32,000 bases of DNA from Leptolyngbya sp. Cla-17 (GCF_016807185.1 NZ_JAEVYN010000002.1:1630980-1662979); one strand, 5' to 3'; positions 13,286 through 19,640 are shown, numbered from the stretch's first letter. Notes: a model not told the origin generated them from the sequence alone. Translations and numbers: made by a program.

Positions 13286-14995
13286 ATGAGCTATCGGATG
13301 AATCGCCGCGCCTATGCGGAAACCTTTGGACCAACCGTGGGCGATCGCGTCCGGCTCGCCGACACGGAGTTAATCATCGAAGTGGAGCAAGACTACACCA
13401 CTTACGGCGATGAGGTGAAGTTTGGTGGCGGTAAGGTGATTCGGGAAGGCATGGGACAGTCGCCAATCACCAATGCAGATGGGGCGGTAGATGCGGTGAT
13501 TACCAACGCGCTCATCCTGGATTGGTGGGGCGTTGTCAAAGCCGATGTGGGGATTAAAGATGGCAAAATTCACGCGATCGGCAAAGCGGGAAATCCTCAT
13601 ATTCAGGACAATGTGACGATTATTATTGGTCCCGGCACCGAGGCGATCGCCGGAGAGGGAATGATTCTGACAGCGGGCGGCATTGATACTCACATTCACT
13701 TCATCTGTCCTCAACAAATTGAAGTGGCGATCGCTGCTGGCATTACCACCATGATTGGCGGCGGCACCGGACCGGCAGCAGGCACCAACGCCACCACCTG
13801 CACACCGGGACCCTGGTATATGCATCGGATGTTGCAGGCTGCCGATGCCTTTCCGATGAATCTAGGCTTTTTGGGTAAAGGCAACAGCGGCAAACCAGAA
13901 GGACTTGTGGAACAGGTAGAAGCGGGGGCGATGGGATTGAAGCTGCATGAGGATTGGGGCACGACTCCAGCGGCGATCGACACTTGCCTTAGCGTTGCCG
14001 ATGAGTATGATGTGCAAGTTGCTATCCACACCGATACGCTGAATGAATCTGGCTTTGTGGAAGATACGATCGCCGCTTTCAAAAATCGTGTGATCCACAC
14101 CTATCACACCGAAGGCGCAGGCGGCGGACACGCGCCCGACATCATCAAAGTTTGCGGTCAGGCGAATGTATTGCCTTCTTCCACCAATCCCACCCGTCCT
14201 TACACAATTAACACGTTGGACGAACACCTGGATATGTTGATGGTCTGCCATCACCTCGACCCGGCGATCGCGGAAGACGTTGCCTTTGCCGAATCCCGGA
14301 TTCGTCGCGAAACTATTGCCGCCGAAGACATTTTGCATGATCTCGGTGCGTTCAGCATGATCTCCTCTGACTCTCAGGCAATGGGGCGCATCGGCGAAGT
14401 AATTATCCGCACCTGGCAAACTGGGCACAAAATGAAAGTGCAGCGGGGCAACCTCTCAGAAGATTCCAGCCGCAACGACAACTTCCGCGCCAAACGCTAT
14501 ATCGCCAAGTACACAATTAATCCCGCGATCGCTCACGGCATCGCTGACCATGTGGGCTCCGTAGAAGTGGGCAAACTCGCCGATCTTTGCCTCTGGCGAC
14601 CTGCCATGTTTGGCGTTAAACCCGAAATGGTGATCAAAGGCGGCATGATTGCCTGGGCGCAAATGGGCGATGCCAACGCCAGCATTCCCACGCCCCAACC
14701 CGTGCATATGCGCCCCATGTTTGCTAGCTATGGCGGCGCGATCGCCCACACGTCCCTCACCTTTGTGTCCAAAGCGGCGCTCAAAAAAGGGATTCCTGAT
14801 GAACTGGGCTTGCAGAAAAAAGCGATCGCGGTTTCCAACATTCGCCAACTGACCAAGCGCGACATGAAGCTCAACGATGCGCTACCCCACATGGAAGTAA
14901 ATCCCGAAACCTATGAAGTCCGTGCCGATGGGCAACTGCTCACCTGCGAACCCGCCACCATCCTCCCCATGGCACAGCGCTACTTCCTGTTTTAA
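13286..14995 (+). CDS. ureC: urease subunit alpha
   Basis: The [30 protein letters not shown]-terminus, [13 protein letters not shown] nickel ligands, GLKLHEDWG (carbamylated-Lys region), MVCHHLD and SSDSQAMGR. 569 aa. Confidence 0.97.
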
Positions 14996-15000
14996 TTCAT

Positions 15001-15315
15001 GGTTAACGTTCTTGTTTAAAGCGGGAACGTTTTTGTTTTCAGTGAGAACGTTCCTGTTTCAGGTAGGACGATTCCTGTTTCAAATAGGAATAATGCGGGT
15101 TGAAACAGCAATCGTCTTGTTTCAAGTGAAAACACTCCTGTTTTAAGTGAGCTGGTTTCTGGTTGAAACGACACAGTTCTTGTTTTAAGCTAAAACGTTC
15201 CGGTTACAAATGAGACCGTTGCGGTTTCAAACAGGAGTTTTCCTATCCTGAACTACGACAGTTTGGTTTTAAGCAAGACAGTTCTAGTTTTGGGCAAGAC
15301 TGTTGCCAAATCAAA
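15001..15315 (+). repeat. tandem array of 15 degenerate 21-nt units, consensus about YGAGAACGTTCCTGTTTCAAG
   Basis: Units read directly from the sequence at an exact 21-nt period: ggttaacgttcttgtttaaag / cgggaacgtttttgttttcag / tgagaacgttcctgtttcagg / taggacgattcctgtttcaaa / taggaataatgcgggttgaaa / cagcaatcgtcttgtttcaag / tgaaaacactcctgttttaag / tgagctggtttctggttgaaa / cgacacagttcttgttttaag / ctaaaacgttccggttacaaa / tgagaccgttgcggtttcaaa / caggagttttcctatcctgaa / ctacgacagtttggttttaag / caagacagttctagttttggg / caagactgttgccaaatcaaa. Confidence 0.9.
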
Positions 15316-15440
15316 TCTCAAATTTCCAGTTAGATCGAGAATTCCAGATCGAAATCTCCAAAAGTAACCTGAAATCGGGTGGAAAATTTATACTTCGGAG
15401 GCTACAACAGAGATAGTTTTCTTTCATTACCCATAAATTT

Positions 15441-15911
15441 ATGCTGGAAGTCATTACCCTGGCGTTGGCGACCCCGATCGCAAAAATTATTTTAGATAAA
15501 CTCTACGAAGGCATGGGGAGTAAACTGGGCGAAAAGGTATCAGAAGCGGCATCTGCACCGATTCAAAAGTTGGGACAGGCGGTATGGAATCGCTGCTTTA
15601 AGGGCAAACCAGGAACCGAGAAGGTTTTAGAAGCAGCAGCTAAAGGTTCGGAGCCAGAACTAAAGCAAATCCAGGACTACCTGCAAAAGGAAATGGAGAA
15701 TCCTGAATTTGTGGGTATGGTGCAGCCGATCGCTCAGGAAATCCATCAGGTGCTCGTGCAGATGGATGATGTGAATGCGGAGAATGTCCAGCAGAATGCG
15801 CGGGACGGGTTTCAAAATATCGGGACTGAAGGACCGATTCTTCAAGGGATTAAGGATTCACCGATTACTTTCACAACGCACAACTACCACGGTGTAAAGC
15901 CGACAGATTGA
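15441..15911 (+). CDS. 156-aa all-helical protein; by frame continuity, the N-terminal domain of the downstream NB-ARC/TPR protein
   Basis: ATG ORF with a hydrophobic/amphipathic N-terminus (MLEVITLALATPIAKIILDKLYEG) and predicted helical segments. It ends at TGA 15909-15911, in the same frame as ORF 16026..17735. No recognisable SD. Confidence 0.6.
   Translation: MLEVITLALATPIAKIILDKLYEGMGSKLGEKVSEAASAPIQKLGQAVWNRCFKGKPGTEKVLEAAAKGSEPELKQIQDYLQKEMENPEFVGMVQPIAQEIHQVLVQMDDVNAENVQQNARDGFQNIGTEGPILQGIKDSPITFTTHNYHGVKPTD
15909..15911 (+). other. single in-frame TGA separating the N-domain ORF from the NB-ARC/TPR ORF
   Basis: The context is AAG CCG ACA GAT TGA CTG GAG CCG. Hand translation of 15912-16025 is stop-free (LEPPEREQAKLNSTHNLDQRGTDIFVGREQELIDLHKV) and runs directly into LQGENAVAISAISGMGGIGKT. 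Confidence 0.9.
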
Positions 15912-16025
15912 CTGGAGCCGCCTGAACGGGAACAGGCAAAGTTAAACTCCACACACAATCTTGACCAACGCGGCACGGATATTTTCGTTGGACGAGAGCA
16001 GGAATTAATCGATCTGCACAAGGTA

Positions 16026-17735
16026 TTGCAGGGAGAGAATGCTGTGGCAATTTCGGCAATCTCTGGCATGGGCGGGATTGGCAAGACCGAATTGGCAGTG
16101 CAGTATGCATGGGAACATTTGGCGCAGAAAACCTATCCGGGTGGCGTGGTTTGGTTAAAAGCACGGGAAGACGTGGCAACGCAAATTGTGCTGTTTGCCC
16201 GATCGCTGCCGATGCCGCAACCACACGATGATTTTGAACTGGCAGAGAAGGTGAAGTTTTACTGGCGCAACTGGCAAGACGCGAAAACGCTGGTGATTTT
16301 GGATGATGTCCAGAATTATGGTGCCATCAAACCGCTGCTGCCAGTAGACCCGCGCTTCAAAATTTTGCTGACCACTCGCTGGCGGTTGCAATCGCCCGTA
16401 CAGGATTTTGAAATCAAGGTGCTGTCGGAGGAGAAGGCGATCGAGTTGCTAAGGGCGATCGTTTTTGATGGACGAATCGACCAGCAAATTGATGAAGCCA
16501 AGCGAATTTGTCAGTGGTTGGGCTACTTGCCACTGGGCTTGGAGTTGGTCGGGCGATATCTGGCGCGAAAACCGGATACATCGTTGGCAACCCTGTGGCA
16601 ACGCTTGCAGGACAAAAAGCTGAACGCGAAAGCGCTGAAAGATGCCGTCCCGGAAATGCCCGCAATTCTGGGAGTCACCGCCGCTTTTGAATTGAGTTGG
16701 GACGTGTTGGATGAGCTAGCGCAACAGTTGACAGCATTGCTGAGTCTGTTTGCCCTGGCAGAGATTCCCTGGACGTTGGTAGAAGCGTGTTTACCGGAGG
16801 AAGACCCAGAAGCGTTAGAAGATCGGCGGGATGAGTCGCTGGTCTCCCTACATCTGCTGGTACGCACCGGACAAGGCACGTACCAACTGCACCAACTGCT
16901 GCGCGAGTTTTTTGCGGCAAAACGGGCGGAAATGGCAGTAGATGAAGAGATGAAGCAAGCATTCTGCCGGGTGATGTCAGCTGTGGCAGATCAGATGCCA
17001 ATAAACCCAACCCGATCGCAGATTGAGCAATTTGCCCCGGTCATTCCCCACCTGAAGGAAGTCGCCGACACTCTCCATCCCTGGCTCACCGATGCTGATG
17101 TAATTAAACCCTCTACCCGAATTGCTCAGTTCTATGAAGGACAGGCAGCCTACGCCGAGGCACTACCCTGGTATCAACACAGTTTAGAAATCGCAGAAAC
17201 CAGATTAGGAGCAGAGCATCCCCATGTCGCCACCAGCCTCAACAATCTGGCAGGACTCTACCAATCCCAAGGACGCTACAGCGAGGCAGAACCGCTGTAC
17301 CTCAGAGCGCTAGCAATCTATGAACAGCAGTTGGGCGCAGACCATCCCGATGTCGCCACCAGCCTCAACAATCTGGCAGGACTCTACGAATCCCAAGGAC
17401 GCACCAGCGAGGCAGAACCGCTGTTCCTCAGAGCACTGGCAATCAGGGAACAGCAGTTGGGCGCAGACCATCCCGATGTCGCCACCAGCCTCAACAATCT
17501 GACATTACTCTACAAATCCCAAGGACGCACCAGCGAGGCAGAACCGCTGTACCTCAGAGCGCTGGCAATCCTGGTCGAGAAACTGGGAGACAACCATCCC
17601 AATACCCAAACGGGGCGGCAAAACTTCCGGTTCTTGTTGCAGCAAGTGATTCAGGCGGGGCAAACGGCGCAGCTATCGGAGCATCCGCTGACGCAGAAAC
17701 TCATTCAGCAATTACAAATGCAGAATCAGGAATGA
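16026..17735 (+). CDS. STAND NTPase of the NB-ARC (AP-ATPase) clade with C-terminal TPR repeats (NLR-like); the true 5' end is uncertain
   Basis: P-loop GMGGIGKTE (16065-16091), Walker B LVILDD (16290-16307), LLTTR (16365-16379), and the GLPL-type motif GYLPLGLE (16521-16544). The C-terminus has kinesin-light-chain-type 42-aa TPRs (ATSLNNLAGLYQSQGRYSEAEPLYLRALAIYEQQLGADHPDV, three copies). The track start TTG 16026 lies downstream of the conserved FVGREQEL pre-P-loop element (15984-16007). Confidence 0.85.
   Translation: MQGENAVAISAISGMGGIGKTELAVQYAWEHLAQKTYPGGVVWLKAREDVATQIVLFARSLPMPQPHDDFELAEKVKFYWRNWQDAKTLVILDDVQNYGAIKPLLPVDPRFKILLTTRWRLQSPVQDFEIKVLSEEKAIELLRAIVFDGRIDQQIDEAKRICQWLGYLPLGLELVGRYLARKPDTSLATLWQRLQDKKLNAKALKDAVPEMPAILGVTAAFELSWDVLDELAQQLTALLSLFALAEIPWTLVEACLPEEDPEALEDRRDESLVSLHLLVRTGQGTYQLHQLLREFFAAKRAEMAVDEEMKQAFCRVMSAVADQMPINPTRSQIEQFAPVIPHLKEVADTLHPWLTDADVIKPSTRIAQFYEGQAAYAEALPWYQHSLEIAETRLGAEHPHVATSLNNLAGLYQSQGRYSEAEPLYLRALAIYEQQLGADHPDVATSLNNLAGLYESQGRTSEAEPLFLRALAIREQQLGADHPDVATSLNNLTLLYKSQGRTSEAEPLYLRALAILVEKLGDNHPNTQTGRQNFRFLLQQVIQAGQTAQLSEHPLTQKLIQQLQMQNQE
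17211..17588 (+). repeat. three tandem 126-bp repeats, nearly identical at the DNA level, encoding 42-aa TPR units
   Basis: Copies start at 17211, 17337 and 17463, exactly 126 nt apart. For example, gcagaccatcccgatgtcgccaccagcctcaacaatctg is identical in copies 2 and 3. Confidence 0.9.
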
Positions 17736-17773: not shown

Positions 17774-18178
17774 TTAGTAACAGCCCAACGCTGAAACGGT
17801 GTAGGTATTGCCGATCGCCCGTAATCCACCCACGCTGGCATTTACCTGATAAGGCGTGGCATTAGGCCTCGCTGGCCCCTGAATGTTGTAAGGCTTGCCT
17901 TCGGGTAGCTTCAGAGTCCGCACGAAAGCCTTATCTGCGGTGTCGTTATTGTATTTTAGAAACATGGCAATATCATATTCACCCCCATTTTTAGGCACAA
18001 TGCGAACAACATAACGCCTAAAACTTTGGCTGCTGGGCACCACAAAATCCGTACTCCAGTTGTTCCGAGTGATGCCAGTACCTGGAGGGGAGACTGATTT
18101 TTGCGCCTGAGTTCCCTTACCATCTACAACTGCCAACGCTGTGCAGGATTGCGCCGTCGCTGAATTCATGAAGCCCAC
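17774..18178 (-). CDS. small beta-rich protein with Cys near both ends, probably exported; start codon ambiguous
   Basis: The ORF track starts at GTG 18178, and an ATG lies at 18169. The mature-like sequence runs from QSC... to ...LGCY (two Cys). No recognised domain. It lies downstream of, and on the same strand as, the lipase gene. Confidence 0.55.
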   Translation of the reverse strand: MGFMNSATAQSCTALAVVDGKGTQAQKSVSPPGTGITRNNWSTDFVVPSSQSFRRYVVRIVPKNGGEYDIAMFLKYNNDTADKAFVRTLKLPEGKPYNIQGPARPNATPYQVNASVGGLRAIGNTYTVSALGCY

Positions 18179-18359
18179 CGCCCCCCAGTAGACCTGATAA
18201 TGCCCGCGATCGCAATAGTTTCTAACTGATTCATGGTTGACAGCCTCAGTAAGTTCGGTGCCTCTTCAGTGTTTTCTGTTCTGCCATAACTCACATCCCC
18301 AAAAAGAGAGATAAAGCCAAAGTTGCGACCTCCCGGTTTTTAGACCGATTTACCCAAAG

Positions 18360-19478
18360 TCACACAGGGAAGTCTGGCAGCATGTTGGTTTCCACTTGTT
18401 TGGCGATCGCCGCCCGATACACACTAGTAAAGTGATTGGGTGCAACATCGCCGGTGTAATAGAGAAAAGACCAGTTTTGCCCAACATGGCGAAAATCTGA
18501 ATTTTGGGTTTTAGAAGGAGGCACTGCTGGCACGGAATCCGCCAGGTTGAAAATCCGATACATATTAGGAACTGCCCCACTCAGAAATTCAGCAAATGCA
18601 AGATTGCCCACCCTGGGAGATGCATAAGTATAGAGCCGCAATTGGGGTTTCATCCTAGAGCTTGATAAATCCGAAGCGGCAAAGGTCGCGAGGGCAGCCC
18701 CCAAACTATGCCCGGTTAGGTAGCAAGGTGCGGCAGGATTCAACAGTTTGGCTGCCGCCTGCACTTGCGTTTGCACATTGGTATAAAACGACTGAAATCC
18801 TCTGTGAACTTTGGCAGCCTTTGCACCCGCTTGCACATAGTCCACTTGTCTAACTTGAAGATTAGAAATCCAGTCATCAGAGGTTTGAGAACCGCGAAAC
18901 ACAATGATGTTGCCCTGTTTAGAGGTTAAGGCAAAGCCCAAATAGACACTTCTAGGGTTAGCGACTCGCTGCAATGCTCTGGGAAGTCTGTCGCGAATTT
19001 CCTGAGGCAGTTGGCGTTCGATTGCGTCGAGGGGCAATTGCTGCAAAATTTTAGGAATCACAGTGCCCTGAAGCGATAATCCTAGTAGTTCTTCCTGTGC
19101 TTTAAAGGCTGCAACCTCAGTATAGCCATCCAACAGAGGCGTATAGCTTTTCAGAGATTTGATTGAGCCATCATAGGCAGGGTTTGCGATGCCAGCCGCA
19201 TATTGATCGTAAGCAATATCACAACACTGAATCATCAGCTTGGATAGGGTGCGATCGTAGGGAACAGTCGGCTGCACTAAGCCATCTTCAACTTTAGGAG
19301 GACTATTCGGATCGCCATCATAATCAAATAATGCGGGTGGTCCTTTTGGTTCTCCGTTGTTCTTGTTAGGTGTAGGAGGTTCAGCTGCTTGGATGGAATG
19401 CTGTTGAGTCGCGATCGCGCTTGCAGTACCCGCTGCCAATCCAGTTAGCAACACCTTCCGCCGAGTTAGCTTAGTCAT
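18360..19478 (-). CDS. class 3 (fungal-type) lipase family protein with a twin-arginine signal peptide
   Basis: The ATG at 19478 gives MTKLTRRKVLLTGLAAGTASAIATQQHSIQA (Tat motif RRKVLL plus an h-region). Nucleophile elbow YLTGHSLGAALATF, Asp context FNLADSVPAVPP, His context DFRHVG. The 54 codons upstream of this ATG in the track ORF translate a repeat element and are rejected. Confidence 0.85.
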   Translation of the reverse strand: MTKLTRRKVLLTGLAAGTASAIATQQHSIQAAEPPTPNKNNGEPKGPPALFDYDGDPNSPPKVEDGLVQPTVPYDRTLSKLMIQCCDIAYDQYAAGIANPAYDGSIKSLKSYTPLLDGYTEVAAFKAQEELLGLSLQGTVIPKILQQLPLDAIERQLPQEIRDRLPRALQRVANPRSVYLGFALTSKQGNIIVFRGSQTSDDWISNLQVRQVDYVQAGAKAAKVHRGFQSFYTNVQTQVQAAAKLLNPAAPCYLTGHSLGAALATFAASDLSSSRMKPQLRLYTYASPRVGNLAFAEFLSGAVPNMYRIFNLADSVPAVPPSKTQNSDFRHVGQNWSFLYYTGDVAPNHFTSVYRAAIAKQVETNMLPDFPV

Positions 19479-19560
19479 GCTTGCACAGGAAAAAATTACC
19501 TCCCAAATCATCCTTCCTTCACCCAGGTTGTGCAAGAGCAAATGTAGGAATACGTAGTAA

Positions 19561-19640
19561 ATTGGGGTGCGGAGTTTTGAGTTGTTTTTCTGTCTTTCCC
19601 TTCTGTTGCCTAGCTCCTGTCCCTTAGCTTCTAACTTCAT
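19561..19640. repeat. small dispersed repeat copy (ACTCCGCAC family, reverse orientation)
   Basis: ggggtgcggagt (19564-19575) is followed by tttgagttgtttttctgtctttcccttctgttgcctagctcctgtccc. This is collinear with the 6700-6775 copy and with the reverse complement of 11633-11701. Confidence 0.6.

Follow-up and report, generated by a model that had tools for sequence, protein, structure and literature searches.

The 32,000 nucleotides (nt) of Leptolyngbya sp. Cla-17 DNA analysed here (GCF_016807185.1 NZ_JAEVYN010000002.1:1630980-1662979; the strain is also named Phormidium sp. CLA17), referred to below as the window, carry at positions 15441–17735, on the plus strand, an NLR-like gene whose reading frame is interrupted by a single stop codon. 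The first open reading frame, ORF1 (15441..15911), has an ATG start and encodes 156 amino acids (aa). ORF2 (16026..17735), with a TTG start, encodes 569 aa in the identical frame. An earlier reading, made from the sequence alone, had treated the two as one frame with a single interruption, and translation bears this out: the sole internal stop is the TGA at 15909–15911, in the context GAT TGA CTG, and the long frame ends with its own stop at 17733–17735. The 114 nt (38 codons, 15912–16025) between this TGA and the TTG at 16026 translate without a stop as LEPPEREQAKLNSTHNLDQRGTDIFVGREQELIDLHKV, exactly as in that reading. This linker contains no ATG, GTG or TTG, and the first such codon is codon 39, the TTG at 16026 that had already been singled out as the first candidate start. 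Directly 3' of the TGA the frame is open for 607 codons, far more than expected by chance.

Downstream of the stop, the proposed NB-ARC and TPR architecture is confirmed by Pfam, with an NB-ARC NTPase match (PF00931, E 4.9e-18) at residues 31–244 of the frame beginning at 15912 (16002..16643) and TPR_12 (E 6.8e-56) and TPR_10 (E 9.4e-49) repeats, the presumed sensor, at residues ~405–587 (17124..17672). A central P-loop NB-ARC domain with C-terminal TPR repeats has the features of a STAND NTPase. The start-less linker includes the sequence HNLDQRG and, as noted earlier, an FVGRE element (15984–15998) ahead of the P-loop (GMGGIGKT, 16065–16088). In current annotation ORF1 is a separate hypothetical protein (WP_171575092.1), and ORF2 has three NCBI records, its start having been placed differently between 16014 and 16046 in three annotation versions (CTG, 573 aa; TTG, 569 aa; GTG, 563 aa), and each of them leaves out the FVGRE element. 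The standard product would have no N-domain; an effector domain is on the same polypeptide as the NB-ARC domain only if the TGA is read through.

The helical N-domain proposed for ORF1 has no match in Pfam, NCBIfam or PADLOC, but is supported by AlphaFold, which predicts a bundle over residues 1–114 (15441..15782) and helices over residues 7–120, with predicted local distance difference test scores (pLDDT) of 70–87. It is Bell-like, and may act in membrane targeting or cell death. The most conserved part of the family is the hydrophobic N-terminal helix, MLEVITLALATPIAKIILDKLYEG in the window, with an acidic residue at position 3 and the family consensus MLExITLxLATPIAKIILDKLYEGxGSKLGEK. The Bell domain was defined by a hydrophobic N-terminal helix, an acidic residue at position 2 or 3 and a five-helix bundle (Dyrka et al., 2020, bioRxiv 10.1101/2020.01.06.895854), and these descriptors fit a 156-aa protein beginning MLE with helices predicted as above. 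Residues 115–156 (15783..15908) form a tail with pLDDT below 50, predicted to be disordered. Relative to the body of the protein, tails in the family are rich in N (5.9x), Q (2.2x) and G (1.7x) and poor in L (0.27x) and K (0.5x), which fits the criterion of Dyrka et al. (2020) for a C-terminal motif of ~25 aa, Q/N/G-rich and K/L-poor; the tail is thus a putative BASS-like amyloid-signalling motif. Profile searches of the N-domain against the PDB gave only matches with E > 0.1 and Foldseek none below E = 1, and gave no basis in homology for placing it among Bell, HeLo or CC domains.

The best evidence that the tail is one half of a putative paired signalling motif comes from a single relative, L032 (related loci are designated by L numbers). 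There (165–2827) an N-domain of the ORF1 family ends in a TAA stop, without the RNA element described below, and is followed after a 55-nt spacer by an ATG-initiated NB-ARC/TPR protein, which carries the small protein's tail motif again at its own N-terminus (TN..T.TG..NTNF.GGEH.H; 18/29 identical, E 3e-12). This is the published two-gene amyloid-signalling layout, and it establishes that a canonical alternative architecture exists. Unlike L032, the window has neither a copy of the motif nor a start codon after its stop, which makes it a variant rather than a canonical member of the Bell/BASS-NLR group.

Conservation of the stop and of the flanking frames

Homologues of ORF1 were collected in a word-indexed search, which gave 84, and in an exhaustive profile search of 1.84 billion representatives, which gave 185 clusters. 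All 84 of the former, the close homologues, are stand-alone proteins of about 150 aa (range 91–216 aa), none of them fused to an NTPase; nearly all of the 185 remote cluster representatives are also stand-alone, at ~130–160 aa. The stop is kept across the N-domain family, down to ~40% identity. At about 26 distinct loci, on genome and metagenome contigs, the stop of the small ORF is followed by a long open frame in the same register, 300–850 codons wherever the contig is long enough. Five of these loci are from isolates: the window, Stenomitos frigidus ULC18, Lusitaniella coriacea LEGE 07167, Leptolyngbya sp. FACHB-36, and cf. Phormidesmis sp. LEGE 11477. To the question raised by the sequence-only reading, whether the TGA itself is conserved among homologues, the answer is largely yes: TGA-C is kept at 19 of 21 junctions, and TAG-C is found at the other two (L010 and L031), with the same element behind it. 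As an ordinary gene end, TGA is used by 4 of the 28 genes in the window.

One protein, P0369 (L037:488-1648, ENA ERZ27264734 k141_901044), appears to be a fusion with Trp at the stop position. The DNA reads TGA, with the stem described below intact, and the Trp is a gene-call artefact in which the in-frame TGA was translated as under an alternative genetic code. The only genuine sense-codon fusion is P0334, from L038, with TCA (Ser) at the stop position; at this locus the junction element shows decay, and the domain that follows is something other than an NLR.

The three nearest NB-ARC relatives are 76–83% identical, and each has a small upstream ORF in a different genomic context. At L001 the N-domain is that of the window and the junction is an identical GAT TGA CTG. 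L003 has another N-domain and still an in-frame TGA followed by CT. The third, L002, is considered below. (The gene neighborhoods of all three differ, with toxin-antitoxin-like genes near L002 and L003.) The N-domain of L003 and L004 represents a second, unrelated family that shares the same junction, and the NTPases after the junction vary as well, including several NB-ARC+TPR subfamilies, NACHT+NCH2, and NACHT. Where relatives of the window NB-ARC domain have a TIR or some other N-domain, the gene is an uninterrupted single ORF, so the interruption goes with particular N-domains.

Selection was estimated from the ratio of nonsynonymous to synonymous substitution rates (dN/dS). For ORF1, compared between the window and L001, this is 0.09 (dS 0.35). 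In four comparisons each, the NB-ARC domain gives ~0.2 (dS 0.56–0.71) and the remainder of the protein 0.19–0.39 (dS 0.95–1.38). Codons 12–38 of the linker give 0.14 against L004 (dS 1.24) and 0.08 against L003 (dS 1.62). Since these last ratios are low at dS above 1, and the codons lie 5' of every annotated start, the linker is translated. The first 11 codons after the stop show the opposite pattern, low dS with high dN, which indicates that the nucleic acid, more than the peptide, is constrained here. By these measures, both halves of the gene and the start-less linker are under purifying selection.

Two explanations first offered for the interruption, a very recent nonsense mutation in what is now a pseudogene and a sequencing or assembly error, can be set against this record. 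In their favor, TGA is one transition away from TGG, and additional disruptions are seen at L014/L016, L017, and L030. Against them, the stop is at the same position in ~26 independent assemblies, including the five cultured isolates, with N-domains diverging to ~40% identity, and dN/dS is well below 1 on either side of it. The comparison refutes both, and we give them almost no weight.

An RNA element behind the stop

In 23 junctions aligned at the stop codon, conservation is lacking on the 5' side except for a frequent GAT (Asp). On the 3' side it extends for 45 nt, with the consensus TGA CTG GAG TCG TCG GGA GRG GCA CCG ACA AAG nnA AGC ACC CCA, and third codon positions are conserved to the same degree as first and second ones. 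A stem of 5 base pairs (bp) begins 8 nt past the stop. In 22 sequences 95.5% of its cells are paired, versus 16–39% in slid controls; three of the five pairs show compensatory double changes, G-U pairs included, and the covariation score was reached by none of 500 shuffles. RNAalifold predicts the same 5-bp stem, as the only consensus structure. In the window the stem-loop is at 15920–15937, with a 5' arm GCCUG (15920–15924), an 8-nt loop, and a 3' arm CAGGC (15933–15937), two compensated pairs apart from the consensus GUCGG/CCGAC; further variants of the arms are GUCCG/CGGAC, GUUGG/CCAAC, and GUCUG/CAGAC. Searched with a covariance model of the element (R1), each related locus yields a single copy, invariably at the junction; the one match in the 32-kb window is at 15906–15956 (61.6 bits, E 4.5e-13). 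A candidate pseudoknot between G residues of the loop (~15928–15930) and a downstream C-run, ACCCCA (~15949–15951), is 85% paired, with few informative changes. An extended three-tier hairpin in the minimum free energy fold of the window was rejected: its z score is -1.04 and it is not conserved. No exact match of the junction element was found in viral contigs.

UGA-C is a known leaky context, and structures ~8 nt 3' of a stop are a known class of stimulator (PMC3542737, PMC7026636). Several features by which readthrough is recognized occur together here: a conserved stop in a leaky context, an open downstream frame under purifying selection, and a conserved 3' element. Frameshifting or ribosome hopping at GAU-UGA-C was also considered and discarded, the +1 and +2 frames closing within 15–23 codons.

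A conserved stem-loop with G-rich loop nucleotides close behind a UGA also recalls a bacterial selenocysteine insertion sequence (SECIS), with the UGA decoded as selenocysteine. Several observations make this very improbable. TAG takes the place of TGA, with the same element, at L010 and L031; the linker between the domains, where the site sits, is variable; a typical bacterial SECIS has a longer stem, farther from the UGA; and the same kind of fusion would be reached through frameshifting in the sister family described below. A search of Rfam with positions 15300–16200 gave chance-level matches only and no SECIS, and no tRNA genes, suppressor or selenocysteine tRNAs being sought, were found within the window.

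The junction could instead be mainly a DNA-level exchange module or recombination hotspot, in which case the stop would be an ordinary gene end and the downstream ORF often unexpressed. It does connect N-domains of two or more families with NTPase modules of several unrelated kinds, its nucleotide identity is higher than that of its flanks, and the genomic contexts vary among loci. The stem, however, is of an RNA type, kept by compensatory changes that include G-U pairs; the downstream ORFs are under purifying selection; and the element is lost together with the stop at L038 and absent at L032, where the NLR has its own start. As the main explanation an exchange module is therefore improbable. 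Shuffling of modules probably also happens, and is compatible with readthrough.

Proposed readthrough, a sister family, and the setting of the locus

L002, among the nearest NB-ARC relatives, has a different upstream ORF, of 165 aa, ending GCA AAA AAG TAA. This places A_AAA_AAG in the X_XXY_YYZ register of a -1 frameshift site; the NB-ARC protein lies in the -1 frame, which is open from the heptamer and start-less, and a 12-bp hairpin (-29.8 kcal/mol, z -3.95) follows the stop. The heptamer is in register in all four loci of this sister family that were examined (signal sites L002:2963-3013, L005:2947-2995, L035:3492-3530, and L036:3576-3590). Their -1 frame stays open for 361–852 codons and leads into ORFs, NB-ARC/TPR or other, that lack a start, and three of these loci have a strong hairpin of unrelated sequence right after the stop. 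Among the best 120 of 454 homologues of this N-domain all are stand-alone, of 143–275 aa (most 163–165 aa), and 113 of these 120 end in KK or KKS. From its sequence, the junction is a probable dnaX-like programmed -1 frameshift site. The heptamer signal is absent from the window, where ORF1 and ORF2 share one frame. Elsewhere in the same genome, outside the window, a protein of the frameshift-type N-domain family (P0215, Phormidium sp. CLA17, JOY44_01240) ends in ...GAAKK. Two distinct recoding devices ahead of start-less STAND NTPases would suggest that the outcome under selection is a low-level fusion.

The main rival to readthrough is the separate translation of two proteins, with the NLR started either through reinitiation after termination or from a non-canonical codon of the linker, and the hairpin serving in coupling, mRNA processing or stability. 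In canonical Bell/NLR pairs there are indeed two genes, and the spacer between them is very short or overlapping (Dyrka et al., 2020). About half of the loci have a CTG directly after the stop, and L003 and L021 have a TTG four codons past it. No start is conserved in position, though. Many loci have CTA or CAG as the first codon after the stop, and in 11 of the 16 loci of NB-ARC type no ATG, GTG or TTG occurs until after the conserved FVGR element; the linker upstream nonetheless has dN/dS of 0.08–0.14. The NLR also has no motif copy of its own, unlike that of L032, and in the sister family a -1 shift would be needed to enter the start-less NLR frame. Separate initiation is for these reasons unlikely, although less so than the other alternatives.

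Programmed stop-codon readthrough, by which one mRNA would yield an abundant Bell-like effector and a rare effector-NLR fusion, is the reading that we favor from the comparative sequence evidence, with a probability of about two in three (0.68). Most ribosomes would terminate at the UGA at 15909–15911 and release the 156-aa protein, which combines a Q/N/G-rich tail with a Bell-like helical domain whose presumed role is membrane targeting or cell killing. Directed by a signal made up of UGA-C, the conserved stretch of ~45 nt and the 5-bp stem-loop 8 nt downstream, a minority would decode the UGA with a near-cognate tRNA, most likely tRNA-Trp, and continue across the start-less linker into the NB-ARC/TPR region, giving a fusion of ~764 aa. 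This rare fusion would be the sensor. Its oligomerization on binding a ligand would cluster the N-terminal tails and domains, and the cluster would then recruit the pool of free effector, or act as its template, by way of the tail that both have in common, on the model of NWD2/HET-S, BASS pairs, and Bab/Agp. Readthrough would in this way replace the duplicated motif and separate start of the two-gene systems, and would keep a dangerous receptor scarce.

The loci compared retain the stop, the reading frame, and the RNA element; purifying selection acts on the downstream frame, and no start codon is conserved. Leaky readthrough, one of the explanations offered at the outset, is favored by the conserved element, its covarying stem, and the frameshift signal of the sister family, while the occurrence of readthrough, its efficiency, and the residue inserted are inferred from these patterns. 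Amyloid behavior, cell-death activity, and any role in defense are likewise inferred. A number of points weigh against the proposal. The stem has a mere 5 bp, and the local fold of the window is no better than that of shuffled sequence (z -1.04). No bacterial precedent for structured readthrough stimulators, which are established in eukaryotic viruses and genes, was found in the literature. In a few loci (L003 and L021) the TTG within four codons of the stop would permit separate initiation. Other loci have further disruptions: at L014/L016 (3060–4585) the first 91 codons of the NLR are in one frame and the rest in a different one, at L017 (1319–1963) an in-frame stop interrupts the NB-ARC domain, and at L030 (2601–3060) the N-domain is frameshifted. 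Such copies are decaying, or else the indels arose in assembly. Finally, membership of the N-domain in the Bell group and the amyloid character of the tail are argued from descriptors, from composition, and from the L032 pair.

A more general proposal would be that filamentous cyanobacteria recode NLRs as rare fusions to an excess of effector, through either stem-loop-driven UGA/UAG readthrough or a dnaX-like -1 frameshift, with activation seeded by the tail and one gene replacing two. We consider the odds of this to be even. Full-text searches for literature linking recoding with cyanobacteria, NB-ARC, NLR or antiphage functions found nothing relevant. Readthrough with a structured stimulator is textbook material for eukaryotic viruses and essentially undescribed in bacterial cellular genes; if the proposal is correct, this would be, to our knowledge, the first bacterial chromosomal gene family with a conserved stimulator of this kind, and the first connection of recoding with NLR immunity. 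It would suggest a design for NLR/amyloid systems in which a single recoded gene provides an abundant executioner and a scarce sensor-executioner fusion, with the stoichiometry set by the ribosome and the motifs of receptor and effector identical by construction. It would also account for "orphan" Bell-like proteins and "N-terminally truncated" NB-ARC/NACHT annotations in cyanobacteria; current annotation pipelines and defense-system finders split or mis-start such genes. The junction element is compact (~50 nt) and directly testable.

Upstream of ORF1, ~180 nt (15265..15440, plus strand) align to L001 at high identity, the homology beginning right after the unrelated fpg gene of L001. A role as 5' leader or promoter region may be supposed for this segment; no match to the sigma-70 consensus was found in the region upstream of ORF1. 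Between the ureC stop and ORF1 there is also an imperfect array of ~15 units with a 21-nt period (14987–15304; consensus roughly GACAGTTCTTGTTTTAAGCAA). Its first units include a terminator-like hairpin of ureC (15005–15031), and its last two are inside the ~180-nt region common to the window and L001. Directly downstream of the gene, on the minus strand (17774–19640), are a 134-aa ORF without a Pfam match and a 426-aa class-3 lipase (PF01764, E 1.8e-32).

Comparison with known systems

The tripartite arrangement of an N-terminal effector, a central STAND NTPase, and a C-terminal repeat sensor is shared with Avs and bNACHT proteins, and the conserved N-terminal helix region resembles the "MEPIS" region that Ibarlosa et al. 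(2024, bioRxiv 10.1101/2024.11.07.622273) describe for Avast2 and certain bNACHTs. The Avs-type label suggested by the sequence-only reading is not supported, however: PADLOC gave a weak generic TPR match (E 5.6e-05) and no model of Avs or of any other defense family. In the window, unlike these proteins, a stop codon also separates the effector from the NTPase.

In its signal, the junction resembles Type II readthrough in eukaryotic RNA viruses, where UGA-CUA or UGA-CGG is combined with an RNA structure ~8 nt downstream (Firth and Brierley, 2012, PMC3542737). Here too UGA is followed by C (as CUG, CUA or CAG), with a paired structure from 8 nt past the stop, and here too, as proposed, a short product and one extended at its C-terminus would be made in a set ratio. 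The differences are that this is a bacterial chromosomal gene, translated by 70S ribosomes with RF2, that the stem is 5 bp rather than an extended stem-loop, and that readthrough is here a prediction from sequence. The sister family (L002, L005, L035, and L036) resembles E. coli dnaX, with A_AAA_AAG and a hairpin (Atkins et al., 2016, PMC5009743), in this case with the -1 frame leading into an NLR. Unlike dnaX, it has a spacer of ~3–4 nt to the hairpin and a stop directly after the heptamer, and whereas the dnaX shift shortens the product, that of the sister family would extend it.

At the level of expression, phage Q-beta offers a parallel in its coat and A1 proteins, whose set ratio comes from recoding where the first ORF ends. 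Retroviral Gag/Gag-Pol is similar, with an abundant N-terminal product and a rare C-terminally extended fusion from one mRNA, again through recoding at that point (PMC5009743, PMC3542737). Those are viral structural and enzymatic proteins; the products here would be a cellular immune effector and its sensor.

Closest among published systems are the amyloid-signalling Bell/BASS-NLR pairs found in filamentous bacteria (Dyrka et al., 2020), with Bab/Agp of E. coli (Ibarlosa et al., 2024) as a second comparator; readthrough and frameshifting are not mentioned in either paper. Homology of the window N-domain to Bell was not found with Pfam, PDB profiles or Foldseek. What ORF1 has in common with these systems is a short helical protein with a hydrophobic first helix, an acidic residue at position 2 or 3 and a Q/N/G-rich C-terminal tail, a collinear position immediately upstream of an NB-ARC/TPR or NACHT protein, and occurrence in filamentous cyanobacteria. 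The contrast is in how the second protein is reached: in the window and ~25 relatives the NLR has neither a motif copy nor a start of its own, and lies instead behind a TGA-C and an RNA stem.

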